34,086 nt of DNA from a virus (lineage: Duplodnaviria > Caudoviricetes), in the IMG/VR virus record IMGVR_UViG_3300044670_001784, positions 1 to 34,086 of that record, one strand, 5' to 3'. The translations under genes and the position numbers were made by a program. Below, one piece after another: positions 6,770 to 32,381 of the stretch. Position 1 is the first letter of the stretch; every line of letters begins with the position of its first letter. The notes beneath the pieces are model-generated. The model was not told where the DNA came from and did no database searches. It was given only the letters and a program-made list of their open reading frames with translations.

Positions 6770-7722
6770 TGTGGATACTACCAAACAACCTAAATCTGTC
6801 ATCAGCTTTTGTACCGGATACGCTGGCATCGAGCGAGGACTTGAGCTTGCCGGGCTTGAACTTAGAACACTCTCTTATGTGGAGATCGAAGCCTTCGCCA
6901 TTGCAAACTTGGTCGCGAAGATGGAATCGGGTTCCCTGGATCCGAGCCCTGTCTGGTCGAATCTTAAAACCTTCCCAGCACACTTGTTTCGAGATCGAGT
7001 TGACATCCTTACATCTGGCTATCCCTGTCAGCCTTTCTCAGCCGCAGGAAAGCGCGCCGGAAAAGATGATCCCAGACATCTCTGGCCATACATCAGAGAA
7101 CACATCGATACAATGCGACCTGTTCGATGCTTCTTCGAAAACGTCGAAGGACACATCAGTCTTGGACTCAGAGAAGTCATCGAAGATTTGGAAGAGCTTG
7201 GTTATAAAACGACGTGGGGAATATTTAGCGCGTCTGAAGTCGGCGCGCCGCATCAGCGAAAGCGAGTCTACATCTTGGCCGACTCCGATAGCAAGCGATG
7301 GGCCAAACATGATAGCAAGCAAGGAAGCAGCAGCAAAGGAAAACGAACGGACACAGGGAGGGGTCAGACTATCAGGAGCGGTGCTATTGGAGCAGTGGCC
7401 GACTCCGACAGCAACGGACAACGGCCCCGGACTCGACAGGAACAACCCACGCGGCATTCAGCAGGGCAACGCTCTAGCGACAGCAGTAGCGTGGAAAGCG
7501 AGAGGATGGTGGCCGACTCCAGCAGCACACGAAGCTCGACTCGGTTATCAAGACCGGAGCGATCCGACAAAGAAAGGCACTCAGAAGTCGCTAACAACAG
7601 TAGTGATAGATCAGGCTGGCGGCAGAGCGCAGACCAATGGGCAACTGAACCCGGATTGGGTCGAGTGGTTGATGGGTGTCCCGACAGGGTGGACAGACTT
7701 AGGCTCCTGGGGAATTCAGTAG
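6769..7722 (+). CDS. Overlapping +1-frame methyltransferase beta polypeptide (putative TRD modules and motif IX)
   Basis: 317 open codons; three WPTP modules; GQLNPDWVEWLMGVPTGWT resembles motif IX (LTPRECARLQGFP type). Confidence 0.75.
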   Translation: MWILPNNLNLSSAFVPDTLASSEDLSLPGLNLEHSLMWRSKPSPLQTWSRRWNRVPWIRALSGRILKPSQHTCFEIELTSLHLAIPVSLSQPQESAPEKMIPDISGHTSENTSIQCDLFDASSKTSKDTSVLDSEKSSKIWKSLVIKRRGEYLARLKSARRISESESTSWPTPIASDGPNMIASKEAAAKENERTQGGVRLSGAVLLEQWPTPTATDNGPGLDRNNPRGIQQGNALATAVAWKARGWWPTPAAHEARLGYQDRSDPTKKGTQKSLTTVVIDQAGGRAQTNGQLNPDWVEWLMGVPTGWTDLGSWGIQ

Positions 7723-7778
7723 TGGTACAGACAGCGGCGAAAGCGTGGACAGTATTGGATAAGGAGATAACGAAGTGA
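6771..7778 (+). CDS. C5-cytosine DNA methyltransferase, alpha frame (motifs I-VIII and X)
   Basis: Motif I FCTGYAG, IV GYPCQPFS, VI ENVEG, VIII HQRKRVY, X RLRLLGNSVV; no motif IX in this frame; RBS GAGGT at 6755-6759. Confidence 0.9.
   Translation: MDTTKQPKSVISFCTGYAGIERGLELAGLELRTLSYVEIEAFAIANLVAKMESGSLDPSPVWSNLKTFPAHLFRDRVDILTSGYPCQPFSAAGKRAGKDDPRHLWPYIREHIDTMRPVRCFFENVEGHISLGLREVIEDLEELGYKTTWGIFSASEVGAPHQRKRVYILADSDSKRWAKHDSKQGSSSKGKRTDTGRGQTIRSGAIGAVADSDSNGQRPRTRQEQPTRHSAGQRSSDSSSVESERMVADSSSTRSSTRLSRPERSDKERHSEVANNSSDRSGWRQSADQWATEPGLGRVVDGCPDRVDRLRLLGNSVVVQTAAKAWTVLDKEITK
7276..7532 (+). repeat. Three direct repeats TGGCCGACTCC inside the methyltransferase
   Basis: Copies start at 7276, 7396 and 7510 (spacing 120 and 114 nt, both multiples of 3); they read WPTP in the beta frame and ADS in the alpha frame. 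Confidence 0.85.
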
Positions 7779-8655: not shown

Positions 8656-8870
8656 ATTACGATTTGCTTTCCGAGAAAATTGCTTTGCAAATCAGCAAGG
8701 CGCCAAAGGACCATGAAGTATTGTGGAATGCGCAAGAATGCGCAGACTACCTGCATTTTAAGAAGCGATACTTTGCAGAGAAACTTGCGAAGCAACCAGG
8801 CTTTCCTAAAACCAGAGGCACTGGCGCACTTTGGCTCAAAGCTGACATCGTTCGCTGGGCCAAAGGTTAA
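8640..8870 (+). CDS. xis: Excisionase / AlpA-like recombination directionality factor
   Basis: LWNAQECADYL...QPGFPK...LWLKADIVRW winged-helix pattern; convergent with the integrase; GGGAG RBS. Confidence 0.75.
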   Translation: MDLAIDYDLLSEKIALQISKAPKDHEVLWNAQECADYLHFKKRYFAEKLAKQPGFPKTRGTGALWLKADIVRWAKG

Positions 8871-9847
8871 AGTAACTGTCGTAGCTCTCTCGCATCCTTG
8901 TTGTAATAGGTCATTAGTTGTTTGATGTCTCTGTGGCCCGTCACCCGGGCCAGGTCTAACACTTGTAACTTACCTGCCAGCCTGGTCGTTGCTTCATGTC
9001 GCGCATCATGAAACGTCAAGTTATCGATTGCGCAGTGCGCGACAGCCTTCCTGAACATTGTACTGACTACGCCAGCAGAGACGCCTAGCATCGTTTCTTT
9101 CGTGCGTTCTAGTCTTTGTATTAACTCTATCGCCCGGTCAGACAACGGCACGTTGCGAGATACGGCTGTCTTTGTGATTGTATGTGGCAAGGATATATAG
9201 CCCTCGTCAAGATGCACATCCGACCACTTCACCCGCGCAAGCTCTCCCTGGCGCATCGCTGTCTCTAAAGCAACCAAGAATGCTATCGCGACTTTTTGAC
9301 GTTGCGCGGTTATGGGTTGGTCATCTGAGTAATTTAGCGCGACCAGCAATTGCTCTATCTCTTGATCACTGATCCGACGATTGCGTGGCTCAGGGTCTTT
9401 TGGCCGCATCAAATCAGTCATTGGATTGTGCGTCATCATGCGCCAGCGCCTGGCGTACTTGAAGATATTACTGATCAAATTAAGATCGCGATTCATCGTG
9501 CTTGGTTCGATCTCTTTTAATCGATCATCGATGAGGCGCTCGACATCCTCTCGCTGTATGTTGGTCAGTTTACGATCAAACAATCCAGGATACCTGCGCG
9601 CATACATATCCAAACGAATACGCTCCTTTTGTGCGCCTCGCTTGGTTTCGCTCACCTCTCGCTTGTAGCGCTCGCAGAGCTCGCGAAGCGTACCAGTGGC
9701 TATCGCGACTCCAGTGTCTCGCGTCACCATCTCCGCAGCCCAGGCTTGCGCCTGGCGCTTTGTGTCGAATGTTTTAGATTTTCGGCGCCCACCGACTTGA
9801 ATTTGCGCCTGCCATCGATTGCCTCGCTTCTGATAAGTGCCCTTCAT
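8867..9847 (-). CDS. int: Tyrosine integrase (Rci/HP1-like subfamily)
   Basis: LETAMRQGEL, TKT, FHDARHEATTRL and GHRDIKQLMTYY catalytic motifs; AGGAGG RBS favours ATG 9847 over 9886. Confidence 0.93.
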   Translation of the reverse strand: MKGTYQKRGNRWQAQIQVGGRRKSKTFDTKRQAQAWAAEMVTRDTGVAIATGTLRELCERYKREVSETKRGAQKERIRLDMYARRYPGLFDRKLTNIQREDVERLIDDRLKEIEPSTMNRDLNLISNIFKYARRWRMMTHNPMTDLMRPKDPEPRNRRISDQEIEQLLVALNYSDDQPITAQRQKVAIAFLVALETAMRQGELARVKWSDVHLDEGYISLPHTITKTAVSRNVPLSDRAIELIQRLERTKETMLGVSAGVVSTMFRKAVAHCAIDNLTFHDARHEATTRLAGKLQVLDLARVTGHRDIKQLMTYYNKDARELRQLL

Positions 9848-9856
9848 GACCCCTCC

Positions 9857-10080
9857 TGCTGCAATTTTTGCTGCATTCTGCTGCATTTTGCTGCGTGAAA
9901 ACGTGTATGAAGGTGTATCTAAAAGGTTTACAGAGCAAATGTAAAGCCCTGAAACCCCTATATTATGGGGCTTTAGGTGTATAGGTGGGTATTAGTGTAG
10001 AGGGGAATGGTGCCCGGGGCCGGGGTCGAAGAAGCCCGTTTTTACTGGGCTCAAAGGACGGTTGCTGTAATTTTGCTGTA
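9857..10080. mobile_element. attP region with arm-type repeats
   Basis: TGCTGC(A/G) at 9857, 9869, 9879 and 9889; TTGCTGTA at 10062 and 10073 on the other side of the core; (AG)GTGTA repeats at 9903, 9911, 9975 and 9994. Confidence 0.75.
10008..10030 (-). other. attP core: 3' 23 nt of a tRNA (probably tRNA-Leu)
   Basis: Minus strand TTCGACC-CCGGC-CCCGGGC-A-CCA = T-loop(7)+T-stem(5)+acceptor(7)+discriminator+CCA; the upstream sequence is not tRNA-like. Confidence 0.85.
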
Positions 10081-10100: not shown

Positions 10101-12143
10101 CTATTGCATCATTAAACCTTGTTGCGCTGAGTTTAAATTAGCCGGTGCAATCTCTGCGCCGAATCGACCACTCATTGATCCTACATTACCTGGGCCGGTC
10201 AATCCTTGTCCAAGTAGCGGCAGGATTTGCGGCAAGATTGATGGCGCATTGCGCTGGATCGATTGTAGCATTGTGCCGCGACCCAGGTCTGACAATATTT
10301 TCGGCAGTATTGCTGGGTCTGTTTCGGTCAGCACCCTGGCTATTTCAGCAGAGGCAGCGCGCAATTTTTGATCAGTTTGTGTCTGGTTGCTTTCTCTCAA
10401 GCTCGACATAATCAAATCGATTGCAGAGGTTGGAGGTGTTGCACCTTCCGCCTGGTTCCTGAATTGCCTCATCAGCTCAGATCGCTGGGCAGTCAAGCTG
10501 TTGGCGCCTGCTCTTTCTGTGACGGCCATGTTGCTCTCGCGACCCAGGTTATCCATGAACACGTCAAACGCCTGATCACCGTCCTTGCCGCTTGGAAATG
10601 CCAGGCGCATGAGGCGCCTGCGTGTTTCTGTCTTCATCACGTTTCTGGCAATGTTAGCAGACTCAACACTGTTATTAAATTGATCTTGCAGGTTCTGCAA
10701 AGCACCCAGGCGAAAAGCTTCCTTCTCGCTTTTGTCCATCCTCATCAGGTCTGCGGCAAGTTCGTCACCATCTTCTGAAAGCAACCCTCGACCTCTTTTC
10801 ATGGCCTCCATGACACTGCTATCACCCGCGTACAAATTTCGGGCTCTCGCGTACATTGGATTAGCATCATCGAGCATCTCTAAAAATTCAGAGCGAAGGT
10901 CGCGCACTGCGTTAACTTCTGTTGCACCAACGCCCTCGCTGGGAATTTTAGGAAATGCGACATCATCCAGACCCTGTTTCATATAATGCAAAAAGCGCGT
11001 GTTAATTGCAGATACCGGGGCACCGTCAGCGTCAACGATTCTGCCCTGTGGGGTAATGCGCAAACGCATAGCAACCGGGTCTTTTTGATTGCCTGCGATC
11101 CGCACTGCGTTTTGATACGCCTGTTGCATTGCTGGCGTTCTCATCAGTTCTTGTAGTTCTGGCGTGAAAGGTACATCAAGTTTATTTGCTGCACCGTACA
11201 GCTTGTCAGCAGTGCTTTTACGAGCGGCCTTCATCGCTTGGAAATCGTTGTAGAAATTGGCGCGCTGTCCGAATGCGTCTTGCAGGATAGTGCCTAGTCG
11301 AGCGTTCCTGCCCTTCATCCTTTCTTGCAAAAAACGATTGGCTGTTAGTTTGCCTGGACCTGGCATCACTGACAATACATCAATCAGCGCTTGCGTATTG
11401 CTGCCCAGGTCTGCAAGAGTCACTTGCTTGCCTGCTTGCTGGCCGATGAACGCGACAGCTTCATCTACTGACATGCCGTCAGCCTCAATTTGTTGAATCA
11501 GCGTCTGTCTTGCCAGGTTGACGCCTTCCCGGTCTGATGCCTTCTTTGACGAGTTAAACAGCGCACGATAAACAGGACTGACTAAACGTTTACCGAATTG
11601 GTCTATCACAAGCTGAGAAACGCCACCAAGAGAACCGCCAATTGCAGCACCGTCCGCCCTATCTATCGCGTTACCCTCATCAGCCATAAAACCACTAACT
11701 AAGCCAGTGCCGACAGCTTCAGCTCCGCGAGCTAAAGCGGTACGCCCGGCGCCCAGAGGTCCAAGCGCAAGACCGCCAGCAGCCTCTAATGCTAAAGCCT
11801 TTCCTTGGTTTTCTTCTCTATACTGATTTATTGTTCCTCGCTCTAACGCGATGCCAACATCTGACGAAGACACGTTCGCGTCTGGAAATCCTTTGTTAAC
11901 AGTGTCAGCAATCATTGAGCTGTCATTACCAAGTAAAGATCGCGTGAATCCCATCAACTCATCAGATGAGCTTAATGATGCTCCTTGCAAAATCAGGCCA
12001 ACTTCCGCAGGCGCTAAAGAACCATTTTCTATGGCTTTTAGCATTTGCAAACCTGTCCCTTCGGCTGGCAATCTTCCTGCCTTTTGGCTTTCTTTTAATC
12101 GTTTGTACAAGCTATCTATATAAAACTGGGTGCTTTCAGCCAT
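10101..12143 (-). CDS. Putative internal virion / DNA ejection protein
   Basis: 680 aa, helical and Ala/Gly-rich; last gene of the late operon, where podoviruses encode ejection proteins. Confidence 0.65.
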   Translation of the reverse strand: MAESTQFYIDSLYKRLKESQKAGRLPAEGTGLQMLKAIENGSLAPAEVGLILQGASLSSSDELMGFTRSLLGNDSSMIADTVNKGFPDANVSSSDVGIALERGTINQYREENQGKALALEAAGGLALGPLGAGRTALARGAEAVGTGLVSGFMADEGNAIDRADGAAIGGSLGGVSQLVIDQFGKRLVSPVYRALFNSSKKASDREGVNLARQTLIQQIEADGMSVDEAVAFIGQQAGKQVTLADLGSNTQALIDVLSVMPGPGKLTANRFLQERMKGRNARLGTILQDAFGQRANFYNDFQAMKAARKSTADKLYGAANKLDVPFTPELQELMRTPAMQQAYQNAVRIAGNQKDPVAMRLRITPQGRIVDADGAPVSAINTRFLHYMKQGLDDVAFPKIPSEGVGATEVNAVRDLRSEFLEMLDDANPMYARARNLYAGDSSVMEAMKRGRGLLSEDGDELAADLMRMDKSEKEAFRLGALQNLQDQFNNSVESANIARNVMKTETRRRLMRLAFPSGKDGDQAFDVFMDNLGRESNMAVTERAGANSLTAQRSELMRQFRNQAEGATPPTSAIDLIMSSLRESNQTQTDQKLRAASAEIARVLTETDPAILPKILSDLGRGTMLQSIQRNAPSILPQILPLLGQGLTGPGNVGSMSGRFGAEIAPANLNSAQQGLMMQ

Positions 12144-13423
12144 TACGGTGTTTCCCCCTCAAGAGCGTTTACTACGTTATCAAGATTAGGTTCCTTACCC
12201 ATTGCAGCGCTCGCTCTAGCTTTTAACTGAAATAATGATTTTGACAAATATCCTTCGCTTTTTTGAACTTCCATTACCTTTCTTTGTAGTAGCCTGCGAT
12301 ATGAAAGAGGGTCTGTTCTGAGCAACTGCTCGTTATCGTCTTGAAATTGCATAACACTATTAGCCATTATTTCATCTCTATCCAGCTTCAGCTTGATCGT
12401 TTCAATCAATATTCTGTTGCCCTCTACAGTCTTAGAAAGACCTGGCGCTGAATCTAAAATTAATTGCAAGTCAGTGTCTGTTGGATTTGAACCTAACGAC
12501 TTAACTAATGGCAGAGCAATTTGATTTGCAATAGAATTAAAAACTAATTCAAAAGAAGGGTCTTTTACATTTAAACCAAGATCGATACCTAATCCCCTAG
12601 CTGCCGCTAATAAACCCTGGGCAGAACCTGTTTGCGTACCAGAATCAAGTAATGCCGTTAGTTGATTTAGACTTGCTCTTTGCGACCCTGCACCAGCCAT
12701 ATTGTCAAAAATTGGGTCGGTAATTCCGTTGATTTTTGTAATTGCATTTTCATATAATTTTATGCTGGTAGAAGCATTTAGTTCTCTGTCAGATTTAAGT
12801 TCTGCTTTCTGGCGGTTAAACTGCTCTATTGATGTTGGCCCCGGTGGTAACCGCAGTGGTCCCTGGCCTGGAGGCATAGACCCCAATATTTCTTGAGCTT
12901 GATTTAAATTATTAGCTCGCTGACTCATTGAAAGATTGTATTGTTGTAACTCTGACGGCAATTGGTAAGGACTACTACGCTCACCAGTCAACGAATTCAC
13001 TTGGTATGGATTACCGTAAGCATCGTTTTGTACTTCGCCCTGCATTCCAAGCACGATTTCTTCTAAAGCTTCGTTGCTTAAATTTTCAACCTGATTAGCT
13101 GGCAAACCAAATTCGTTTACCAACATACCAGCCAACGCTTCACGCCTATTCATTAGCTGTATATCTTGGTTAAAATCATACTGATTCATAATCGATTGCT
13201 GTCTGCGCAAAATGTCTTGCGGAGAATCTTTCATGCCCAGTGAGACTTGCAGCGGATTAAGAATCTTACGCTGCATAAAGTTACCCAGAAATCCCTTATC
13301 TTCCTGCGGGTACATGGTTGGCAATTGCGGTGTTTGTCCGGCTGGCGCCATCTGGCCGCCTTGCAATTGCCCAAGCAATAATTTCTTTTGCTCGTCAGTA
13401 AGCGAATTAATATCAAAATCCAT
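12143..13423 (-). CDS. Putative internal virion / DNA ejection protein
   Basis: About 426 aa, Gln/Leu-rich; TAATG coupling to the next gene; ATG 13423 preferred as start. Confidence 0.6.
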   Translation of the reverse strand: MDFDINSLTDEQKKLLLGQLQGGQMAPAGQTPQLPTMYPQEDKGFLGNFMQRKILNPLQVSLGMKDSPQDILRRQQSIMNQYDFNQDIQLMNRREALAGMLVNEFGLPANQVENLSNEALEEIVLGMQGEVQNDAYGNPYQVNSLTGERSSPYQLPSELQQYNLSMSQRANNLNQAQEILGSMPPGQGPLRLPPGPTSIEQFNRQKAELKSDRELNASTSIKLYENAITKINGITDPIFDNMAGAGSQRASLNQLTALLDSGTQTGSAQGLLAAARGLGIDLGLNVKDPSFELVFNSIANQIALPLVKSLGSNPTDTDLQLILDSAPGLSKTVEGNRILIETIKLKLDRDEIMANSVMQFQDDNEQLLRTDPLSYRRLLQRKVMEVQKSEGYLSKSLFQLKARASAAMGKEPNLDNVVNALEGETP

Positions 13424-13775
13424 ATGGACCCCCAAGATTTTGTTGCGCCGAATTTAAATAGCCAGGCTGATTACCGGCGAAAGGTGGCGTACTCAAAGGT
13501 TGATTTGGGAAAGTTAGCTGCGGCATTGGTTGCATGCCTGGTCCTTGCGACTGATTCAAAATCTGATTGCGCATGTACTCCTCGTACTCTTCAGGCGTCA
13601 TTGTGGCTGCCGCGACTGCCGGGCTATTCATGATGCGATCTTTTATCATGCCGCCGATCTGCGCGGGATCATCGAGTAATGATTTACCCGTATCTATATT
13701 ATCTTGAATGCCGCCGAGCTTTTTTTGTATTTTTTTCGTAACAAGATTTTGCATCAAATTTGCAATGTTAAACAT
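13413..13775 (-). CDS. Putative small internal virion protein
   Basis: 120 aa with a Q/P/M-rich tail, in the ejection-gene cluster. Confidence 0.55.
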   Translation of the reverse strand: MFNIANLMQNLVTKKIQKKLGGIQDNIDTGKSLLDDPAQIGGMIKDRIMNSPAVAAATMTPEEYEEYMRNQILNQSQGPGMQPMPQLTFPNQPLSTPPFAGNQPGYLNSAQQNLGGPYGF

Positions 13776-13779
13776 TGTT

Positions 13780-16596
13780 TTATCCTAGACCAAAATTAGT
13801 TTGTGTGCCGCTGCTGCTACTCAAAGTTGGATTAGGCAGCATGTTTGCTCCACTTCTCAGCACGTCGAACATTCTGAATGGGTAGTTCTGCTGCTCCTGG
13901 AATCGACTGTATTGATCGTCCATGATCTGCTGCGCGAATTGCTGCTGCTGATTGCCAACACCTTGCATCTGTTGCGCATCTGCATATGTCATGCCTCGCA
14001 AATCTTGTCCCAACTGACCTAGCATCCCAGCCCCGGCCAATCTCTGTTGAGCGCCCTGCAAACCAGCATTTTGATTCGCGAGAGCAGCGCGCATACTGTT
14101 ATCGACATTGCCAAATTGACGATCAAGGTCTTGTTGATTCTGCTGAAATCCCATTTGCTGATTAGCCAAGTTAGCTTGCATTGCAGCGTTTTGATTTTGG
14201 AAACCATACGCCTGCGAATTTGCCTGATTAGCCAGCGCTGCTTGCATTGCCGCGCCTTGGTTAGCCTGTGCAGCCTGGCTACGCAGTTGTTGTGTCGCAA
14301 GTTGATTTGCTTGATTAGCTTGGCTCGCGCCAGCGCGAAGTTGCTGCGTTTGCATTAAACCTTGATTTCGCAGACCAGCTTCATCGATCGCTGTTCTTTG
14401 ATTGGCTAGTTGCGCCTGCATTCTTCTGTCTACATTAGCTTGGGCTGCCGCGCTTCCCAGTTGTTGCGCCTGCATATTTGCTGCCTGGTTAGCTTGGCCG
14501 GCAGTGACGCCTAGCTGCTGCGACTGCAATCGGCCTTGATTTCTTGCTTGACCTTCTTGCAGCGCTGTTTGCTGATTCATTCCCTGTGATTGCAAAGCAC
14601 GATCGCGATTTGCTTGGGCGGCAGCGTTGCTAAGTTGTTGAGCCTGCATGTTGGCGGCCTGATTGCTTTGACCTGCATCGACGCCTAAAGACTGAGATTG
14701 CAAACGACCTTGGTTGGCCGCTTGACCGGCAGTCAATTGAGCCTGCTGATTGGCCAGCGCTGCGCGCAAGCCCGCATCCTGATTCATCTGCTGTCGCGAC
14801 AAATTGTTTTGCGCATTGGCCTGCTGCGCGGTCATGTTCTGAGCTTGGTTCGCGAGAGCAAATGCCCGGGCGCTGTCCTGGTTGCTCATCATGCGCTGCA
14901 AGCCCTGCTGTCGCGACTGCAAAGATGCGTCCTGGTTTATCTGGCCTGCTCTGAGCGCTCTATCTGCATCGCTGATGCTGGCCTGTTGATTAGCCAGAGC
15001 AGCCTGAAGGTTAGCGTTCTGATTGACCTCGCCACCGCGCAAACCTAACTCAGCATTCGATTGGCTGGCTGTCAGTCCTGATTGCTGATTAGCAAGAGCG
15101 GCGCGCATGTTTGCATCTTGCGCAGCTAATCCGCTCTGTAGGCCAAGGCGCGCTGCTTCAGTCTGGCCTTGCAGACCGAGCTCTGCGTTTGCCTGACTAG
15201 CAGCTAAACCGCTTTGCTGATTCGCAAGAGCAAATTGACGATTGGCCTCTTGTGCTGCAAGTGCGCTTTGCAGTCCCTGCCGACTTTGCTCTGTTTGGCC
15301 TTGCAAGCCCAATTGCGCATTTGCCTGGCTGGCTGATAATCCCGTTTGCTGATTAGCTAACTGCCCTTGCAGACCCGTTTGCTGGTTAGCTCGAGCTGCA
15401 TCACTTCTTCTCGCCAAGTCTGCTTCGGCAAGACGCGCAGCCGATTCAAAGCCTTGCGCCCTGAGCGCCGAAGCAGTTTTAGCAGTTTGCTCCAATGCCG
15501 CTCTGTTTGTTTCACCTTCAACAATCGCAGCTCGATCGCCGCCGAAGGCGCCTGATGAAATGGCACTTGCTGCATTTTGGTTTTGCTGCATTTTGCGCGC
15601 ACGTTCTATGTCACCTATTGCGCTATCGATTACACCAGTTTGATACTGGTTCATATAATCGTCTAAATTAGTGTCTCTAAATTGTGCGGCATCTACTCTC
15701 TCTGCTGACACGTCATTTGCGGATACGGTGCCTGGCGTGATTTGACCAGTTTGCACTGCTGCAACGTTGCCGATATCGTTCGCTGTCACTGTGCCAGGAT
15801 TAATCGCACCAACACCAACCTCGCCGACCGAAGAAACGTCACCCGCGTTTACCCGGCCTGCGTTGATATTACTTGGCATGCCGATTTGCTGCGCATTACC
15901 AGCAGACGCGCCAGGACCGAGCAAATCGAGCGGCCCTATATCGTCGCCTCTTTGATACATCTCTCTAATTTGACCGGGATCATTGACCATCGAATTAGAT
16001 ACATCATCAAAAGATATTCCGGTATCGACATTATCAACACCAACATTCCTGTTGCTAAAGCGCTCCCTGGCATCTCTCACATAAGTGCGACCAGCGTTAA
16101 TACCTGTGTTTATATCGTCAACGTTAACGTTTCGAGAATTAAAGTTTTGACCAGTTCTTCCTGCATAAACATTGCCGGCATTTGCGCCGGTATTAATGTT
16201 TTGTACGGTTGCGTTTCTGCCGTAGAAATTTGTCGGTACATTTTGTGAACGGACTTGCTGCTGTCCGCCAGCTCTACCAGCATTAACATCACCAACACGA
16301 TTGGCCGCACCTACTTGGTTAGCATAAACATTGTTTGGCTGATAAGCGGCTACGCCCTGCGCAGCATTAATAGCCTGGTTAACTTGCTGTTGCCCTATAC
16401 GGCCCCGTGACGCATCCAGTGTTGCCTGCATTCCCTGCTGCTGGAATGGAGACATTGGAGCCACACGCGCAGCGTTGTAAGGTGTGTAAGGAGTGCGCGA
16501 TAGCGCTTGTCCCTGGTTAAAAACACTAAGCAGAGAGTTCTTAATTTGCGGGTCCATCTGCTGTGAACTTTCACTACTGCCTTTTCCAAAACTCAT
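13780..16596 (-). CDS. Repeat-expanded DNA pilot/ejection protein
   Basis: MSFGKGSSES N-terminus; core YMNQYQTGVID...GAFGGDR; long ANQ-rich segment with 11-residue periodicity. Confidence 0.7.
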   Translation of the reverse strand: MSFGKGSSESSQQMDPQIKNSLLSVFNQGQALSRTPYTPYNAARVAPMSPFQQQGMQATLDASRGRIGQQQVNQAINAAQGVAAYQPNNVYANQVGAANRVGDVNAGRAGGQQQVRSQNVPTNFYGRNATVQNINTGANAGNVYAGRTGQNFNSRNVNVDDINTGINAGRTYVRDARERFSNRNVGVDNVDTGISFDDVSNSMVNDPGQIREMYQRGDDIGPLDLLGPGASAGNAQQIGMPSNINAGRVNAGDVSSVGEVGVGAINPGTVTANDIGNVAAVQTGQITPGTVSANDVSAERVDAAQFRDTNLDDYMNQYQTGVIDSAIGDIERARKMQQNQNAASAISSGAFGGDRAAIVEGETNRAALEQTAKTASALRAQGFESAARLAEADLARRSDAARANQQTGLQGQLANQQTGLSASQANAQLGLQGQTEQSRQGLQSALAAQEANRQFALANQQSGLAASQANAELGLQGQTEAARLGLQSGLAAQDANMRAALANQQSGLTASQSNAELGLRGGEVNQNANLQAALANQQASISDADRALRAGQINQDASLQSRQQGLQRMMSNQDSARAFALANQAQNMTAQQANAQNNLSRQQMNQDAGLRAALANQQAQLTAGQAANQGRLQSQSLGVDAGQSNQAANMQAQQLSNAAAQANRDRALQSQGMNQQTALQEGQARNQGRLQSQQLGVTAGQANQAANMQAQQLGSAAAQANVDRRMQAQLANQRTAIDEAGLRNQGLMQTQQLRAGASQANQANQLATQQLRSQAAQANQGAAMQAALANQANSQAYGFQNQNAAMQANLANQQMGFQQNQQDLDRQFGNVDNSMRAALANQNAGLQGAQQRLAGAGMLGQLGQDLRGMTYADAQQMQGVGNQQQQFAQQIMDDQYSRFQEQQNYPFRMFDVLRSGANMLPNPTLSSSSGTQTNFGLG

Positions 16597-17984
16597 CGGT
16601 TTCCTCCTCGGAAAACTGGCGCCATTACGCTACCACTAAACCTCGCATTTTGATCGTAACCGCCAAAACCAGGGTTGTATTGTTGCGGCGCTGCCACCGG
16701 CAACGGCGCTGGCGGCACATAATTGTTTGCATAACCTTGCATCATAGGGTTACCCATTTGACTAGCTGAATCTAAAATAGGAATTTGTGTTTGTCTTTGA
16801 TGCCCATATATGCGCGGTGCAGGTGCTACATAAGGCTGTTGTTGGCGCCCTGCAATCGCCTGCTGATATCGTTGCTGCACAGTTAGCGGTTGAGAATATT
16901 GTGGTGCAAATTGCGAAACAGTGGGATTGTTTATATTAAAACTTTGGACGGGCATCGCGCTTGCTTGATCTGCCGAATCTAAAATCGGCATTGCTTGTTG
17001 ACTTGATATGTTGGCCTGCTGCGCTGGTAGTGGTGGCGGTGATTGCTGAAACAAAAGAGCGTCTCTTGAGGTTATCCGCCCATCTCCGTTAGCGTCATAC
17101 TGTAGGTCTGGCTCAATAACACCTGACGCCATTTGCATTATATTGCCCACCTCACTGTTTTGATCGATTGGCGGATTAAGAGGTGCAGTTGCTGCTTGAT
17201 ACGCCTGCTGCTGCGTAGAGGCAGCCTCCTGAGACGGTTCTTGCGCTGAAGGCTGATCAGGCTGAAAACGTTCTATATTATCGTAATATCCGACAGGAAA
17301 GCCCTGTTCAATGCCGGCATCATTCATTGAAGGTTCTTGCGCTGGTGCCGGTGCTGGTGCAGCAGCTTGATAAGGATTCTCGTCGGGCTCAGTGCCGTAG
17401 TTATAGTTACTTTGAACAGGGGATTGTTGCTGATTAGAGCGATTAATCGACTGATTGTAAGGCATTAAATCTAACGATGCTTGCGCGCTATCCTGATCAG
17501 CCTGGGAGGTTGTCGGTGTTGGCTGATAATCAGCAACGTATGTATTCGGCGGTGTGTAAGCGCCAAAATTATAGTTAGGATTGTAGTTGTCGTACATTCC
17601 TCGCTCACCACCAGTATGAGAATCGTCTTGCGGATATTGCGGCTGCGGTTGAGGCTGCGGTTGTGGTGCAGGCTGCGGTTGTGGTGCAGGCTGCTGGGGC
17701 GGCTGATAAGGCGCATAATTACTGCCAGGCAATTGATACTGGTTGTAATACCCGGACATAGGCTGCATCACAAACTGTGAACTTCCGTAAGCATCCTGTT
17801 GCGGATTGTATGGCGCTGGACCACCTAGCGGTTGTTGCGGATTGTAGTAGCCATAACCAGTATTGCTGGCGTAATTATTGCCGCCATAATTATTGTTGCC
17901 GTAATTATTGCTGCCATATTGATTTTGCGGCTGGAAGTTTGAGCCTCCTTTTCCACCGCCACCGCCACCTTTACCCGTTGACAT
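16593..17984 (-). CDS. Low-complexity Q/P/N/Y-rich protein (putative internal virion protein)
   Basis: 463 aa; MSTGKGGGGGGKGGS start; ATGA coupling to the next gene; one DANGDGRITSRDAL motif. Confidence 0.65.
   Translation of the reverse strand: MSTGKGGGGGGKGGSNFQPQNQYGSNNYGNNNYGGNNYASNTGYGYYNPQQPLGGPAPYNPQQDAYGSSQFVMQPMSGYYNQYQLPGSNYAPYQPPQQPAPQPQPAPQPQPQPQPQYPQDDSHTGGERGMYDNYNPNYNFGAYTPPNTYVADYQPTPTTSQADQDSAQASLDLMPYNQSINRSNQQQSPVQSNYNYGTEPDENPYQAAAPAPAPAQEPSMNDAGIEQGFPVGYYDNIERFQPDQPSAQEPSQEAASTQQQAYQAATAPLNPPIDQNSEVGNIMQMASGVIEPDLQYDANGDGRITSRDALLFQQSPPPLPAQQANISSQQAMPILDSADQASAMPVQSFNINNPTVSQFAPQYSQPLTVQQRYQQAIAGRQQQPYVAPAPRIYGHQRQTQIPILDSASQMGNPMMQGYANNYVPPAPLPVAAPQQYNPGFGGYDQNARFSGSVMAPVFRGGNR
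17641..17694. repeat. Tandem repeat encoding (QPAPQP)n/(QP)n
   Basis: GGCTGCGGTTGTGGTGCA at 17653-17670 and 17671-17688, with partial flanking copies. Confidence 0.85.
17871..17915. repeat. 3 x 15-bp tandem repeat encoding GxNNY
   Basis: RTAATTATTGYYGCC units at 17871, 17886 and 17901. Confidence 0.85.
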
Positions 17985-18378
17985 CTTTTATCTCCTTAAA
18001 CATGCTCACATGACTCACCTTGTAACCGATGTCATCGAGAGCTTTGGTCCAGCCTTTTCGGCCAGACAGTGTTATATATTTCGCTTCTAAAGCGCGGCCA
18101 AATTCTTGAAACGTTTCGTCCATACCTTTGATTTCCATCAAATCGCCTGCCGCTAAAAAAATATGGATAGCGCGAGCTCTCGGGTAACAAACAACTTCCG
18201 TTATCACGCAGCTTTTTTCTGCCGGCCAAAAGTGCATCCGACCCTCGTCAACAGCTTCAACGATGTCCTCAAATAAATGAGTGCCGCCGGCAAACTCAAG
18301 CGCGGCTTCGAGCATGACCCGGTATGGCAGCATTGCCTCTAACGTGCTTGGTGCTGCTAGTGCTTCCTTTGCGTTCAT
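17971..18378 (-). CDS. GNAT-fold-like morphogenesis protein
   Basis: IHIFLAAGDL...YITLSGRKGWTKAL..GY; located between the nozzle and the ejection genes. Confidence 0.6.
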   Translation of the reverse strand: MNAKEALAAPSTLEAMLPYRVMLEAALEFAGGTHLFEDIVEAVDEGRMHFWPAEKSCVITEVVCYPRARAIHIFLAAGDLMEIKGMDETFQEFGRALEAKYITLSGRKGWTKALDDIGYKVSHVSMFKEIKDVNG

Positions 18379-18581
18379 AAGGCTGTCGCTCCAACGTTGC
18401 CTGAATTATCCACCTCGATGCTGTATCGAGTGCCGTTTGGTGATTTCAAAATCAACCTCGCTGCACCTACCTCAACATCCTGATTCTTTTTGTGATTCAA
18501 TTGATCAGCTTGCTCGATCAACAAATTCATTTTGTTAGTGTCAATATCCGAATATTTTTCTGGCGCCGCAGGTAGAATCAT
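18375..18581 (-). CDS. Small tail-associated protein (68 aa)
   Basis: ATG 18581 overlaps the upstream stop (ATGA); LILKSPNGTRYSIEVDNSG beta-repeat of tail needle/spike type. Confidence 0.65.
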   Translation of the reverse strand: MILPAAPEKYSDIDTNKMNLLIEQADQLNHKKNQDVEVGAARLILKSPNGTRYSIEVDNSGNVGATAL

Positions 18582-20053
18582 CGAACGCTCCCTGGCACAA
18601 CATCTAATCGCATCACGCCCACGCGCCAATCTGTTTGTCGATTGCCTGTAACGCGCATACTGAGCTGACGTCCCTGGAAGCGCACTGATGTTGGATTGGA
18701 GAGGCTATATGGGCCGTGTTCTGTTTCTGGCGCATTCGGATAACTCTTTGTCTTAAATATAGCGGTGACATCACCCTGCGTCTTCTCGTCAGGGATTAGA
18801 TTCTTCGCAACCACTACTCGATCACCCGATCCAATTTCAACAGGTCCACTCTCAGCAAACACGGTTGCGTTGTCGTAGTTGAATCCAACTTCATGCTCGT
18901 AAATGTATCCGTCATCACCGACATAATTTGGGTAAATGAACTCACCGACATCTGCGCCGGCTGTTCTAACCAGTGATCCGACCGTCCAGAATTTTTCTTT
19001 ATAGTTGTATGTCACATACGAATCATTTTCTAACGAGTTGTTGCTTGGATAGAACCAAACAACTTCTGAAAATTTGCTGTTCAATACACCGTAGACTTTT
19101 GATCTTTGGCCTTCGTTGATGTTGTTGAAAACGAAATCGCCCACGGTACTGGGTATTGTTCTCACGCCACCGTCATAAACATAAAAGGCATTGGAGCCCA
19201 TCCAGATCGCGAAGCCGTCCGCTTTGACGCAGGCATTCGCAGATGCAATACCGCAGCCTGTGCCGACTCGCTGAAACCCATAAACAAACGGTGGCCCCGA
19301 ATAGCGCGCAACATGGGCGTCTGTCGTTGTCAGAATTAAAGTCTCACCGCGCAGTTGCTCTGCGGTCAGAATGTTGCCGGCTGTTGTCAGTGTAAAACCA
19401 CCTGCCTGGTTAGTCGCTGTCGCGGTCCATACATTGTTGTTTTCTTGATCGCACCATTCGACTCGATCACCTTCACCACCAGCACCCAGGGCAAAAACAA
19501 ATCTTTCGTCTGTAGTAATAATCGCAGTATTATTAACTGGCGCATTACTCAACACTGCCGCTACTGTCGAGGTGTTGTTAGTCCACTGATATATTTTGCC
19601 GTCAGCATTTGAGCAGCCGATCGCGTACTCACCCCAGTTGTCGATTGACCAGGACGTTGCTGGAACATACGGACCGCTATCTGGTCGCGTTGTTCCCCAG
19701 GAGCTCAATCCCCAGGTTAAAGCATTCCAACCTAAATTCTGCACTGCGTTATCATCGCCTGCCGTAAATCCTACCGGCGTGATATCGTGGATCGCGTTGC
19801 TCTCATCGATGGCGTATAGCTTACTGGTCGTACCTGCAACTGTTCGTCTGCCGCCAGAATTGTCGCGATAGCTCACGATCTTTCTGCATGCCCCGGTCAT
19901 TGCTGACGATGTTCTTTTGCGCCATCCGCCCACCGGCTGAAGGCTGCCTTCATACCAGCGTATTAAATTGCTGTCATTCCAAACGCCGCTTTGCTGATAG
20001 TCAGTGCCATTCTTATGAACGCCTGCTGGTATCTTTAATGCCATCAATCCCAT
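18578..20053 (-). CDS. Tail nozzle / packaged-DNA stabilisation protein (P22 gp10-like)
   Basis: 491 aa, beta- and Trp-rich (WSIDNWGE, EVVWFYPS, YNYKEKFWTVG); gene position. Confidence 0.7.
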   Translation of the reverse strand: MGLMALKIPAGVHKNGTDYQQSGVWNDSNLIRWYEGSLQPVGGWRKRTSSAMTGACRKIVSYRDNSGGRRTVAGTTSKLYAIDESNAIHDITPVGFTAGDDNAVQNLGWNALTWGLSSWGTTRPDSGPYVPATSWSIDNWGEYAIGCSNADGKIYQWTNNTSTVAAVLSNAPVNNTAIITTDERFVFALGAGGEGDRVEWCDQENNNVWTATATNQAGGFTLTTAGNILTAEQLRGETLILTTTDAHVARYSGPPFVYGFQRVGTGCGIASANACVKADGFAIWMGSNAFYVYDGGVRTIPSTVGDFVFNNINEGQRSKVYGVLNSKFSEVVWFYPSNNSLENDSYVTYNYKEKFWTVGSLVRTAGADVGEFIYPNYVGDDGYIYEHEVGFNYDNATVFAESGPVEIGSGDRVVVAKNLIPDEKTQGDVTAIFKTKSYPNAPETEHGPYSLSNPTSVRFQGRQLSMRVTGNRQTDWRVGVMRLDVVPGSVR

Positions 20054-28691: not shown

Positions 28692-30777
28692 TGTTCACGC
28701 TCGCTAGTTGTCTTATCGCCTCCCGGTCCCGCTCAGAACCGGCCTTGATCGCTGCTGTATCAACCTGGGCACCAAAGCGCGCAGTAATCTCAGCGGCCTT
28801 CAGTGCTATATCTGCCTCGTCTTTATCTCTGCGACGATCGTCTTCGCGCATCATCTTCTCGCGCTCAAGTTGCAGCTCCGCTTGCTTCTTCTGTATGTCA
28901 GCTTGGATGCTCTGCATCTGCACTTGTATCAGTGCAGCGTTAGGATCAGGCTGTTCTTGTTGTTCTTGTTGCTGCGGTTGATACTGAGATGGGTCGGTGA
29001 AGAATCGATTGATATCTTTAAAGCCAGCCAGCTCTAACATTTGCGTCATCGTCGCGTAATAGTTCTGCGCATTGACGATGGGGTTGTCTGGACCTAGTTG
29101 CTGCAATAATTGCTCTTGCTTCTGCGCAATTTGTTGCAGCATTGTCAATCGCTCAGTGTCTCCGCCTTTACCCAGGCTAACGTTGGCAACCACGTCCATG
29201 CTGGCGTTCCAGGCATCCGGGCTCATCGGCACAAAGTTGTTGCGCAATCTAATCATGCGCGTTCGTTCCTGATGCGTAACGACTAGCTTCAAGATGCCTT
29301 TGAAAAGTCGCGACATGCCATTCTCAGCAAATAGCCTAGCAATCATTTCTGTTCTTTGTTGCGCTGCCTGGATCGTTTGATTGACAGCCATCAGCGTCGA
29401 GCTTTGCAGAGCTTCTGGCGCCAGGCCATCGGCGGCCTTACTGATCCCGGTCCTGTTCTCTCTGATCTCGTCAAGGTATTGCATCATGCCAAAAGCATCG
29501 CCACCCACATAAGGCAGCGTGAATGGCACAACAGCACCTGGCTGTCGCATACGAATAATGCCGCCGGCCTCGACGTTCATTACGTCTTCCAGGCTTGCCT
29601 GCCCTTCGACAACACCAACCCTGGGGTGAGTAGACATTGCCAGGCTATCGAGTGATGCTCGCAGTACAGCCGATTTAATCCGCTGTATGTCCATTGTTAG
29701 ATCGGCGATCGACATGCCGAAGAATGAATGCGGTTCAGGATCAGGGCAGAACATTGCAAATGGGATATCGTCGCAAGGCTCGTTCCGCTGTACTTCATAA
29801 GTAGGACCAGCGCAGCATATCTTGCGCAGCTCACCGATACCGTCACCATCCATATCGATTCGCATGTACGCTTCAACGTACAGCACGCGTCTTCGCGTTG
29901 GATCAGAGTAGTCACGAGTCTGCTGGCTGAACTGACGCTCTCTTGCTTCTACGTTGAATAAGTCGAAGTCTTCATCATCAGTAGCGTAATCGATGATGTC
30001 ATCGTACTCGTAACCCATTTCAACGAGTTCGCTAACAGTAGCGTAGCGGCGGTGGGCGATGAGATCGGCGTCAGCAAAGGAGCGAGCGTGGCGACTGACA
30101 ATGATCTCTTCTGGAGGCACCGCCGCTACTTTTACTTTACCGTTAGCACGTCGGTGCGTAACGCTGACCGTAAAAAGTTGGACTTGTTGGCCATCGGGCG
30201 AATCGATCGTGTCGTTGCTCGCTGTTTCTAGGGATGTGACATCTACGTTAGGATCGGAGTTGAGTGCAGCTAGTGCTTGCTCGTCGAGTCCTGATAATTT
30301 GTACGACTGAACTTCTTCTGCTTCGTCCCAATAGTATTTTAAGAATCCGCTGCCCTTTACGAGCGCGTCTTTAAATACTGCATAGAGAATCTCGATATAG
30401 CTTTGGTCTTGGTCTTGATTCAAAATGTAATTTGCGTAGTCAGTTGCCTGGCTTGCCATTTCTAAATCTTCTGGACCTTGCGGGGCGTATTCAACAACGT
30501 GATCGCTTGCACAGAAGATACGGATAAGCGATGGCAGCATGGCCTGTACGGTATCCCGTACGTCCATTGTCATTGCAGTGCTTCGGCCTTCCTGCTCATT
30601 GCCGAATGGCTCACCGTTATAATATTCCGCGGCTTCGGCTCGCCCTGGGCTTATCGTGTTATCGATGAAATCAACGGCGTCCTCGATTGACTCACTGACG
30701 ATTGATTGTATTTCGTCTTCGCCGATCGTTTCTTCACTAACAAATTCTTCAGTTGTTTCGTTGCTGTAATCGCTCAT
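28663..30777 (-). CDS. Portal protein (P22-like podovirus type)
   Basis: 704 aa; YYNGEPFGNE, DVRDTV..MLPSL, FKDALVKGSG, RENRTGIS; C-terminal Gln-rich coiled barrel. Confidence 0.9.
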   Translation of the reverse strand: MSDYSNETTEEFVSEETIGEDEIQSIVSESIEDAVDFIDNTISPGRAEAAEYYNGEPFGNEQEGRSTAMTMDVRDTVQAMLPSLIRIFCASDHVVEYAPQGPEDLEMASQATDYANYILNQDQDQSYIEILYAVFKDALVKGSGFLKYYWDEAEEVQSYKLSGLDEQALAALNSDPNVDVTSLETASNDTIDSPDGQQVQLFTVSVTHRRANGKVKVAAVPPEEIIVSRHARSFADADLIAHRRYATVSELVEMGYEYDDIIDYATDDEDFDLFNVEARERQFSQQTRDYSDPTRRRVLYVEAYMRIDMDGDGIGELRKICCAGPTYEVQRNEPCDDIPFAMFCPDPEPHSFFGMSIADLTMDIQRIKSAVLRASLDSLAMSTHPRVGVVEGQASLEDVMNVEAGGIIRMRQPGAVVPFTLPYVGGDAFGMMQYLDEIRENRTGISKAADGLAPEALQSSTLMAVNQTIQAAQQRTEMIARLFAENGMSRLFKGILKLVVTHQERTRMIRLRNNFVPMSPDAWNASMDVVANVSLGKGGDTERLTMLQQIAQKQEQLLQQLGPDNPIVNAQNYYATMTQMLELAGFKDINRFFTDPSQYQPQQQEQQEQPDPNAALIQVQMQSIQADIQKKQAELQLEREKMMREDDRRRDKDEADIALKAAEITARFGAQVDTAAIKAGSERDREAIRQLASVNNGQNGAAVS

Positions 30778-32381
30778 ATCGGGCTCATGTCTAGTAATGC
30801 TTTAGCGAGTTCTTTTTCTTTCTTACCCATCTTGTTGTAGCCCTTGCCCAGCAAATCGATAATCTTGCTATCCTGCGATGCGTCAACAACAGGCGCCAAC
30901 AATCCGCCCAAGGCTTGCATGCCTTGATCGCTGTATTGCTGACCTAGTTGGGTTCTGGGTTGGTAGTCGAAAAATTGCTCAGTGTTTTGTCGCTGATTGG
31001 CTATGTCTTCAGCACTGAAGTTGACGCCCGGCACATAACGATCGCCCAGGTATCTCGCGACAGCACCTGGTGCCGATAGCACTGGTGCAACCATGCCGGA
31101 TGCAGCATTTGCCCCTGCGTCTACGAGACCTGCTATTTTTTCACCGGCGCCAAGTAATCCTGCGCTCATCGCGGCAGTAGCGCCAAGTGCTTTGGGGTTT
31201 GCTGCGCCTTTCTGTTTTTTAGCTTGCTGCTGATAGTTGTATACACCATCGGCCCATTGATCATCGAAAACTTCGTAGAGCTTTGGGTTCATAACCAGAG
31301 AACCCGTTTTTTGCGCTTCAGTGAAAGGCTCGCCTGCCCGGTTAGTTTTTGTATCTAAATCAGCAAACGTCTTTGGGAACATAACGCGAGCAGGCACACT
31401 TTCATCTAAACCACCAATGTAATTGCCAGGTATAATCGTGTCATAGGATTTGTGAGGAGACCCTCCAATAACACTTGCATCAGGTTGCGCGTCAAACATG
31501 CTGAAGCCAGAACTACCAATTGGTAACTCAGCAATTTCTGGCTGCAAAATTTCTGAATGAACATCCTCTTTGATCGGAAAGCCTACATCCCTATGTCGCG
31601 CTTTTGACATCTCTTCAACGAAAACCGATCGCAACTTGCCAGCACCTTTCTGCGGATAATCACCGCGCCCCATAATTTGATCGAGCGCATCGGGATGATT
31701 AACACCGACCCAATCAGGGCGAGACTTTCTGAGCTCCTGGTCAAATGCTTTTACATCTCTCTTTTTAATCGGCAACGATTGTGCTTGCTGCAACATCGCT
31801 TTAGCCGGCGGAGTGCTAAAGTTGACTGCCTCTTTACCCATCGCATTGAAAATGCCGACAGGCTGCATACCAGTTTCGTCAGCGGCCAGTGCAAAGTTAC
31901 TCTGTTTTTTCTTTGCGGCATCTAGCATCGATGCCCAGCCATAACCTTGCGGCTTGTAACGCAAACCGAAATTAGAACCGCCCTGAACATCCACTGGCAC
32001 GTCTAAATCAACACCACCAATAGTTTCTAACGTCTTACCAGTAACGCTAGTATCACCGGCAACAGGAACACCAACCTTGCCGACCAGGTCAGCAACATCG
32101 AGAACATTTCTTTCGCCGATATCGATTGATTGTGTTTTGTTTTCTATGTCAGCGCGTATTTTTTCGCGAAAGCGGAAAGCCTTGTTGTCGCGCATCGCTT
32201 TGTCGTACTTGGTCATTGCCGATTTGACAGCACTAGGATTTTGCGCGCTTTGAGGCTTCAGCATGCCGATACGAATAAGGTTAGCCGGGGTCGTTAAAAA
32301 CCCAGCTTCAGCCTCATCGGGAGTCGCGGCAGCGCCCAACAGACCGGCGCCTAGTAACCTACGAGCAGCAGCAGAGCTCAT
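30774..32381 (-). CDS. Large hypothetical protein between terminase and portal
   Basis: 535 aa; ATGA coupling to the portal; GLLG-rich ends around a globular-looking centre. Confidence 0.75.
   Translation of the reverse strand: MSSAAARRLLGAGLLGAAATPDEAEAGFLTTPANLIRIGMLKPQSAQNPSAVKSAMTKYDKAMRDNKAFRFREKIRADIENKTQSIDIGERNVLDVADLVGKVGVPVAGDTSVTGKTLETIGGVDLDVPVDVQGGSNFGLRYKPQGYGWASMLDAAKKKQSNFALAADETGMQPVGIFNAMGKEAVNFSTPPAKAMLQQAQSLPIKKRDVKAFDQELRKSRPDWVGVNHPDALDQIMGRGDYPQKGAGKLRSVFVEEMSKARHRDVGFPIKEDVHSEILQPEIAELPIGSSGFSMFDAQPDASVIGGSPHKSYDTIIPGNYIGGLDESVPARVMFPKTFADLDTKTNRAGEPFTEAQKTGSLVMNPKLYEVFDDQWADGVYNYQQQAKKQKGAANPKALGATAAMSAGLLGAGEKIAGLVDAGANAASGMVAPVLSAPGAVARYLGDRYVPGVNFSAEDIANQRQNTEQFFDYQPRTQLGQQYSDQGMQALGGLLAPVVDASQDSKIIDLLGKGYNKMGKKEKELAKALLDMSPI

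Follow-up and report, generated by a model that had tools for sequence, protein, structure and literature searches.

Our picture of how a short-tailed phage spans the distance to the host membrane comes solely from a few examples of short, fixed length (P22, T7). In P22, the ejection protein gp7* is described as a dodecamer of folded-back chains with the tip wedged into the tail hub, the bundle forming the extracellular channel, and gp20 as spanning the periplasm (10.64898/2026.09.03.749273). T7 gp14 is depicted after ejection as a two-helix hairpin (PMC11784390), and phiX174 H as an amide-lined hendecad tube (PMC7354561). Here, we analyze a 938-amino acid (aa) ejection-family protein encoded on the minus strand (13780..16596) of the virus record IMGVR_UViG_3300044670_001784 (Duplodnaviria; Caudoviricetes), whose full 34,086 nucleotides are termed the window. 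A conserved core separates an N-terminal arm (N-arm) from a C-terminal arm (C-arm). Among relatives, the two arms change length together, two C-arm residues for each N-arm residue, and the family shows a six-fold adjustable length under a precise structural rule.

The window protein is like P22 gp7* and T7 gp14 in gene position and in its Q/N/A-rich sequence, and its chain would likewise fold back with the tip at the hub. P22 gp7*, in contrast, is a 229-aa protein with membrane-embedded C-terminal helices, whose short helix–helix hairpin makes up the outer-membrane part of the channel as well as the extracellular one. The tip motif looks similar to that of P22 gp7, where it is the best aligned stretch, although not at a significant level. 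A first-pass annotation of the window, made from the sequence alone, had cited phiX174 H for comparison. Both proteins have long amide-rich helices with 11- and 7-residue units, but H is reported as a 170-Å decamer of single helices across the cell wall, the accessible part of the account describes no strand paired with them, and PDB profile searches gave no sequence match to it. The first ejection protein of P22/T7-type podophages is the closer comparison.

In sequence, the nearest described proteins are the phrog_4287 members gp27 of Sinorhizobium phage phiM5 and LUZ24 gp53, which share with the window protein the G-x-F/Y-G-G/S-x-R turn of the core, the N- and C-terminal domains, and the gene slot; Pa223 gp56 is likened to it by size and gene order. 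However, the phiM5, LUZ24, and Pa223 proteins comprise 313–468 aa with short arms, whereas paired repeats make up arms of 229 and 484 aa in the window protein, and phiM5 gp27 carries an extra S74 domain that the window's subfamily lacks. The accessible part of the Pa223 report makes no mention of length co-variation (10.1101/2025.06.11.659172), and a study of LUZ24-like podoviruses, in the part available, sets the internal virion genes aside (PMC10386132). Paired insertions or deletions (indels) in both arms are described at a 1:1 ratio for the cytoplasmic hairpins of chemoreceptors (36H, 40H, and other classes; PMC5907407) and for the HR1/HR2 fusion cores of alphacoronaviruses (PMC10893436). 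These are helix-on-helix pairings in few fixed classes, whereas the window family follows a 1:2 rule over a near-continuum and shares its core with a 1:1 sister subfamily. In the literature covered, where subscription journals and bioRxiv supplements were thinly represented, no ejection protein was found described as having arms that co-vary.

By itself, the 938-aa protein matches no PHROG (E ≤ 0.001) or Pfam family. Its short relatives match phrog_4287, “DNA ejection protein” (P0029, 1.5e-6; P0063, 2.8e-8), and the subfamily profile aligns with phiM5 gp27 over nearly the whole length (hhalign probability 99.4), gp27 in turn matching phrog_4287 at 6.5e-91. LUZ24 gp53 aligns remotely (hhalign probability 90.5; weaker profiles failed). 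Moreover, the gene occupies the phrog_4287 slot, after the hub and a 135-aa gene and before two larger internal proteins, with one extra low-complexity gene between; phiM5 gp27 was detected in virions according to its record. Among clusters at 50% identity, a core profile retrieves 9,810 with E ≤ 0.001, of which 3,967 reach 1e-10. A Pfam scan of 87 family members found no family in more than three members and none better than E 0.003. A Peptidase_S74-like domain ends the protein in many of the distant relatives (L043–L050, L079, L093, L116, L135, P0067–P0069, and phiM5 gp27 at L058:11578-12984); it can be present or absent between close sisters and explains the “tailspike” and “tail fiber” annotations in phage records.

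Repeat architecture of the 938-aa protein

The protein starts with a conserved N-terminal domain (aa 1–85, 16342..16596; minus strand, as for all parts of this gene), which has a G/S/K-rich start, amphipathic helices, and a fixed anchor spacing of 35 aa. It is followed by the V/I/G/N/P-rich, predicted non-helical N-arm (aa 86–313, 15658..16341). The conserved core (aa 314–383, 15448..15657; fixed 68-aa spacing) is predicted as helix, AFGG turn (aa 350–354, 15535-15549), and helix, and would represent the tip of a hairpin. The C-arm (aa 384–865, 14002..15447) is A/Q/L/N-rich (38% Q+N+R), proline-free, and built of 11/7/18/29-residue units; in relatives, it is predicted as a near-continuous helix. 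Earlier taken as ~450 residues and 65–70 nm, this helix is corrected to 484 aa between anchors, ~72 nm at 1.49 Å per residue. A conserved C-terminal domain with amphipathic helices and a fixed anchor spacing of 39 aa (aa 866–938, 13783..14001) completes the chain.

Each arm holds two repeat blocks in mirror order. The outer N-arm block of three 28-aa repeats (aa 123–206, 15979..16230) is the partner of the outer C-arm block of three 58-aa (2 × 29) repeats (aa 616–789, 14230..14751). The inner N-arm block of ~2.6 repeats of 21 aa (aa 244–301, 15694..15867) pairs with the inner C-arm block of 44-aa (4 × 11) repeats (aa 414–545, 14962..15357). The four blocks, placed here by the first-pass annotation, stand: self-alignment scores for the 28-, 21-, 44-, and 58-aa blocks are 119, 88, 276, and 367, far above the shuffle maxima of 60, 40, 78, and 112 (all lags, 300 shuffles per block). 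Adjacent copies are identical at 13/28 and 9/28 positions (28 aa), 9/21 and 8/21 (21 aa), 33/44 and 24/44 (44 aa; aa 414/458/502), and 42/58 and 33/58 (58 aa; aa 616/674/732). A fourth 58-aa unit, supposed to follow at aa 790, has only 9/58 identities and is dropped. Further self-comparison lags of 11, 18, 29, and 33 indicate that the C-arm is made of 11- and 7-residue helical units. From the core outward, C/N length ratios are 2.02 for the inner repeats, 1.89 for the spacer, 2.07 for the outer repeats, and 2.05 for the distal stretch.

The copies are 41–65% identical at the DNA level, and Tandem Repeats Finder detected none of these four periods in the window DNA; they are thus old duplications rather than an assembly slip. 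The same 229/484 arm lengths (N/C) recur on four other contigs (L002, L004, L211, and L218). Among contigs from four runs, one, possibly the source contig, spans the gene unchanged and the rest are fragments, none with a clean unit-sized skip.

Co-variation of the arms and indels at mirror positions

Arms were measured between the three conserved domains, whose internal spacings are fixed (35, 68, and 39 aa), so that arm lengths are well defined; loci with an open reading frame running off the contig were excluded. In a first set, all anchors were found in 79 of 96 distinct proteins, the remaining 17 being fragments or distant subfamilies, and C-arm length follows N-arm length with a slope of 1.99 (r 0.994). 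A held-out second set, with 96 of 99 proteins anchored, places 92 of the 96 within 11 residues of C = 2N + 14 and 95 within 22. Over all 175 relatives, the correlation foreseen by the first-pass annotation holds at r 0.994 with a Theil slope of 2.04 (2.03–2.05). Arms range from 34/80 to 229/484, the window protein being the longest, and 73 distinct length pairs form a near-continuum. Phylogenetic contrasts on a tree of the conserved blocks give a slope of 2.00 (r 0.92), with signs agreeing in 103/110 non-trivial contrasts. Arms differ in half of the sister pairs (28/56), in both arms for 23 and in one arm for 5, and the difference between close sister phages reaches 53/113 residues. Only 11/136 distant cluster representatives were anchorable, too few for arm measurement.

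Nearest-neighbour comparisons locate these changes. Among 55 such comparisons, 36 contain one-to-one paired indels (41 events), 9 are too complex, and 10 are one-sided. For the 41 events, the distance of the C-arm indel from the core follows that of the N-arm indel with a slope of 2.12 (r 0.987), and positions expressed as a fraction of arm length correlate at r 0.97 between arms. The previously predicted slope of ~2.1 is therefore matched by indel positions, while lengths give slightly lower values of 2.0–2.05. Indel sizes convert between N- and C-arm as 5/11, 9/18, 10–11/22, 14/29, 16/33, 21/44, and 28/58, with a median C/N ratio of 2.07. Compared with P0003, the window protein contains +21/+44, +28/+58, and +14/+29 in mirror order, at 42/65, 155/316, and 214/442 residues from the core, respectively. 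Paired duplication at two distant sites, proposed from the single sequence, is seen directly in several relatives as fresh, near-identical tandem copies at mirror positions of both arms (16/33 in P0058, 10/22 in P0128). One-sided changes also occur, two of them large and both on single contigs.

As a separate observation, a clade of near-identical proteins (P0028–P0047, L029–L035) contains a paired +5/+11 allele (404/407 versus 420/423 aa) in scattered members, which suggests that both indels travel together via recombination across the core.

Proposed strand-on-helix geometry and rival explanations

A sister subfamily, found by searching with a distant relative, has the same core and an A/G/Q/R-rich N-arm that, judged from composition and step sizes, is probably helix-like. 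Here, the slope is 1.01 (r 0.994; 45/52 complete proteins anchored), and the main clade keeps C = N + 36 throughout. Fourteen comparisons give a median indel ratio of 1.0 with none one-sided; four are complex and two match only in total. The slope, ~2 or 1.0, follows the relative rise per residue of the two arms, the outcome to be expected if they lie side by side, and secondary structure can be read from indel statistics alone by a slope of 1:2 or 1:1. In the window's subfamily, the N-arm has hydrophobic periods of 2.64 and 5.3 and the C-arm of 3.64, 5.5, and 11; the ratio 5.5/2.64 is 2.08. With the helix at 1.49 Å per residue, the implied N-arm rise is 3.15 Å per residue, which is that of an extended chain. 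The mirror indels and the predicted helix–turn–helix core strongly imply that the chain turns back on itself, the tip lying mid-sequence. A length-matched hairpin is very likely, and a strand-on-helix geometry, in which the N-arm would run antiparallel along the C-helix, is likely. Composition, periodicities, and the slope-1 sister family fit the strand–helix hairpin as originally conceived, with its putative contact between the arms.

AlphaFold2 monomers of the short relatives P0029 and P0095 comprise a helix–turn–helix core, a 150-residue C-helix (with one short break in P0095), and a non-helical, low-confidence N-arm. A complex prediction for P0095, with three copies of residues 195–340 (C-helix) and three of residues 78–146 (N-arm), scored 0.53 versus 0.00 for the best of three controls, which is weak support that does not give the pairing direction; contact agreement between runs was at least 92% and partner pLDDT (predicted local distance difference test) at least 64. 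In calibration, 116/157 solved and 2/215 mismatched pairs reached the mark, but the range up to 0.60 holds just 18 solved pairs and both mismatches. Foldseek with the P0095 model found nothing in the PDB at E ≤ 0.001. In PDB profile searches, the core profile hit no chain at E ≤ 10 and the full profile only an unrelated coiled-coil fusion (E 0.19).

In the mechanism that we propose, each 11-residue helical unit (~16 Å) would be covered by 5–5.5 extended residues (~3.1 Å each), with V/I side chains of the N-arm sitting in grooves lined with small residues. The analogy with P22 gp7* would place the core turn on the hub, its putative docking partner, and both termini at the membrane. A tip docked on the hub outside the cell would explain a length beyond that of a periplasm. 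Duplication or loss in one arm would create a short-lived mismatch, which selection may repair through recombination or through a second change that restores the match at the mirror site. The likely selective pressure, conjectural at this stage, is the thickness of the host surface polymer layer. We assign this reading as a whole, a hairpin that would line an extracellular channel, a probability of about two in three. Evenly balanced in our judgement is the broader proposal that a large podophage ejection-protein superfamily (the 3,967 clusters at E ≤ 1e-10) adjusts how far its DNA channel reaches by an encoded two-arm ruler. In one branch, an extended strand would replace the returning helix and zip 5 per 11 residues, yielding a strand-braced helical tube of 12–72 nm whose length would be reset through duplications that pair two distant sites.

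Several observations weigh against the extracellular-channel hairpin. The AlphaFold2 monomers (predicted TM-scores 0.22 and 0.26) show no hairpin contact and inform on secondary structure only, and mean-field coupling analysis of 172 sequences (effective number ~40) gives no clear anti-diagonal. The protein has no clear transmembrane segment (top 19-residue hydropathy of the whole protein, 0.84). Homology to P22 gp7 was undetected (hhalign probability <1% in four comparisons, with single and 7-sequence profiles), a language-model neighbour, PF25688 (0.86), gives no more than a lead, and the claim is therefore that the protein works like gp7, not that it is gp7. The position fit omits the 9/55 complex pairs, and since some events recur across pairs, 41 overstates their independence. 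Three larger one-sided variants, each on one contig, are P0004 (+28/0), P0007 (0/−80), and P0081, whose N-arm is 10 aa shorter than that of its cluster mate; they may be chimeras or true intermediates. Eight more one-sided differences are each ≤5 aa, and L160 lies 29–33 aa off the fit. Further, a recurring clade (P0001, P0002, P0006, L216, and L217) has a C-arm 21–23 aa below the fit, indicating that the arms tolerate moderate mismatch.

The hairpin could instead be a rod rather than the wall of a hollow channel, that is, a trimeric needle, spike, or fibre-like element that probes or pierces the surface. Some distant relatives end in Peptidase_S74, a domain typical of trimeric fibres, phiM5 gp27 is annotated as a tailspike, and the three-copy complex prediction exceeds its controls. 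Moreover, LUZ24 encodes gp55, likely a needle by size and position, at a place (between hub and 135-aa gene) that holds no separate gene in the window. However, LUZ24 possesses both gp55 and the homologue gp53, and the window's subfamily is free of S74 domains. According to the available part of its report, the equal-sized Pa223 gp56 is found in virions by mass spectrometry, is missing from the mature cryo-electron microscopy map, and is modelled as a nonameric channel (10.1101/2025.06.11.659172). We consider such a rod unlikely, and slightly less likely still the same strand-on-helix hairpin spanning the periplasm or the whole envelope like phiX174 H, or acting as the sole DNA tube. The 38% Q+N+R of the C-arm and its 11-residue units do recall the hendecad tube described for H (PMC7354561). 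Yet the arm range of 12–72 nm is far too wide for a match to the periplasm, given the 50 nm of the whole P22 channel, close sisters diverge by the 53/113 residues noted above, and no profile matches H or any PDB chain. In addition, a separate tunnel candidate is encoded downstream (~430 aa, 12143..13435, minus strand; the P22 gp20/T7 gp15 slot by position, with no PHROG or PDB match), and its length does not scale: it stays at 376–553 aa irrespective of how long the arms are (rho −0.33, n = 50), a result in favour of an extracellular spacer role for the hairpin.

Length co-variation alone cannot tell in which state the arms touch, so that the N-arm might also act transiently, as a chaperone that keeps the helix monomeric in the head or as a ruler for another structure, and peel off after ejection. 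Refolding between packaged and ejected states is described for T7 gp14 (PMC11784390), whereas the accessible account of P22 describes its ejection proteins as disordered when packaged (10.64898/2026.09.03.749273), and no examined neighbour gene scales in step (rho −0.33 downstream, 0.36 for the upstream low-complexity gene); we regard this as improbable. Far more improbable is a correlation from shared ancestry, general repeat expansion, or assembly error without physical pairing. Expansion does come easily to low-complexity arms, and there are a few one-sided variants, but the correlation persists in phylogenetic contrasts, indels agree in size and mirror position, the slope becomes 1.0 in the helix-like subfamily, and repeat copies are too diverged for mis-assembly. 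Unless the anchors are misplaced, the slope-1 control, the held-out fit, the indel positions, and the contrasts refute it.

The extracellular-channel hairpin, if true, would enable phages with short tails to cross a thick surface layer of the host by a paired-arm ruler, and arm sequence would give a direct read-out of the distance through that layer. The predicted fold, an extended strand along a helix of up to 70 nm, has no solved example that we found. It opens the questions of whether channel length follows the thickness of the host surface layer, in the manner of tail tape measures in long-tailed phages, and of how two distant sites within one gene expand in step.

Gene neighbourhood and virus record

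The 34-kilobase record is 95% complete according to CheckV, and DNA matching the window is present in estuary and marine runs. PHROG, Pfam, and PDB matches identify a podophage with an SU10-type portal and capsid, an integrase, and a nozzle-like hub. On the minus strand, the gene order is hub, 135-aa, 463-aa Q/P-rich, 938-aa, 120-aa, ~430-aa, and 680-aa. The order in phiM5 is identical except for the Q/P-rich and 120-aa genes; LUZ24 has one additional gene after the hub and otherwise follows phiM5. The tail hub/nozzle (18578..20053, minus; phrog_3287) matches the VP1 nozzles 8zkk and 9nwi. The conserved 135-aa gene two genes upstream of the 938-aa gene (17971..18378, minus) belongs to phrog_22172 and phrog_7642, the LUZ24 gp54 family; no homology to P22 gp14 was detected. 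Following the ~430-aa protein, the 680-aa protein (10101..12143, minus; phrog_5880) is by position the last ejection protein. The downstream ejection genes (window 10101-13775 and the same slot in relatives) form exchangeable sets of ~385/615, 430/680, and 481/546 aa, which swap without regard to arm length.

The 463-aa gene (16593-17984, minus) is Q/P/A/G/N/Y-rich, probably disordered, with a Gly-Lys-rich start, and is possibly another ejected protein. Its residues 294–311 contain a weak dockerin/EF-hand-like motif (Pfam E 0.0027, below the cut-off). Every readable relative has a low-complexity gene of 168–650 aa in this slot; these genes belong to several unrelated clusters, and their lengths are weakly correlated with those of the arms (rho 0.36, n = 76). 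In LUZ24 and phiM5, the slot is without an annotated gene.

A search of 185,579 genomes for a host returned 46 loci, mostly distant relatives and short contigs in metagenome bins, which gave no assignable host. The virus is likely a temperate phage, given its primase-polymerase/AAA gene (743-2641, minus), its tyrosine integrase (8867-9886, minus), which directly follows the ejection genes as in phiM5, and its DNA methyltransferase (6771-7778, plus). A 535-aa gene between terminase and portal (30774-32381, minus) has no PHROG or Pfam match. Near the left end (100-277), upstream of an endonuclease gene, a short motif of 8–11 nucleotides (ACTGTCGC-like) is repeated, possibly marking origin or operator sites.

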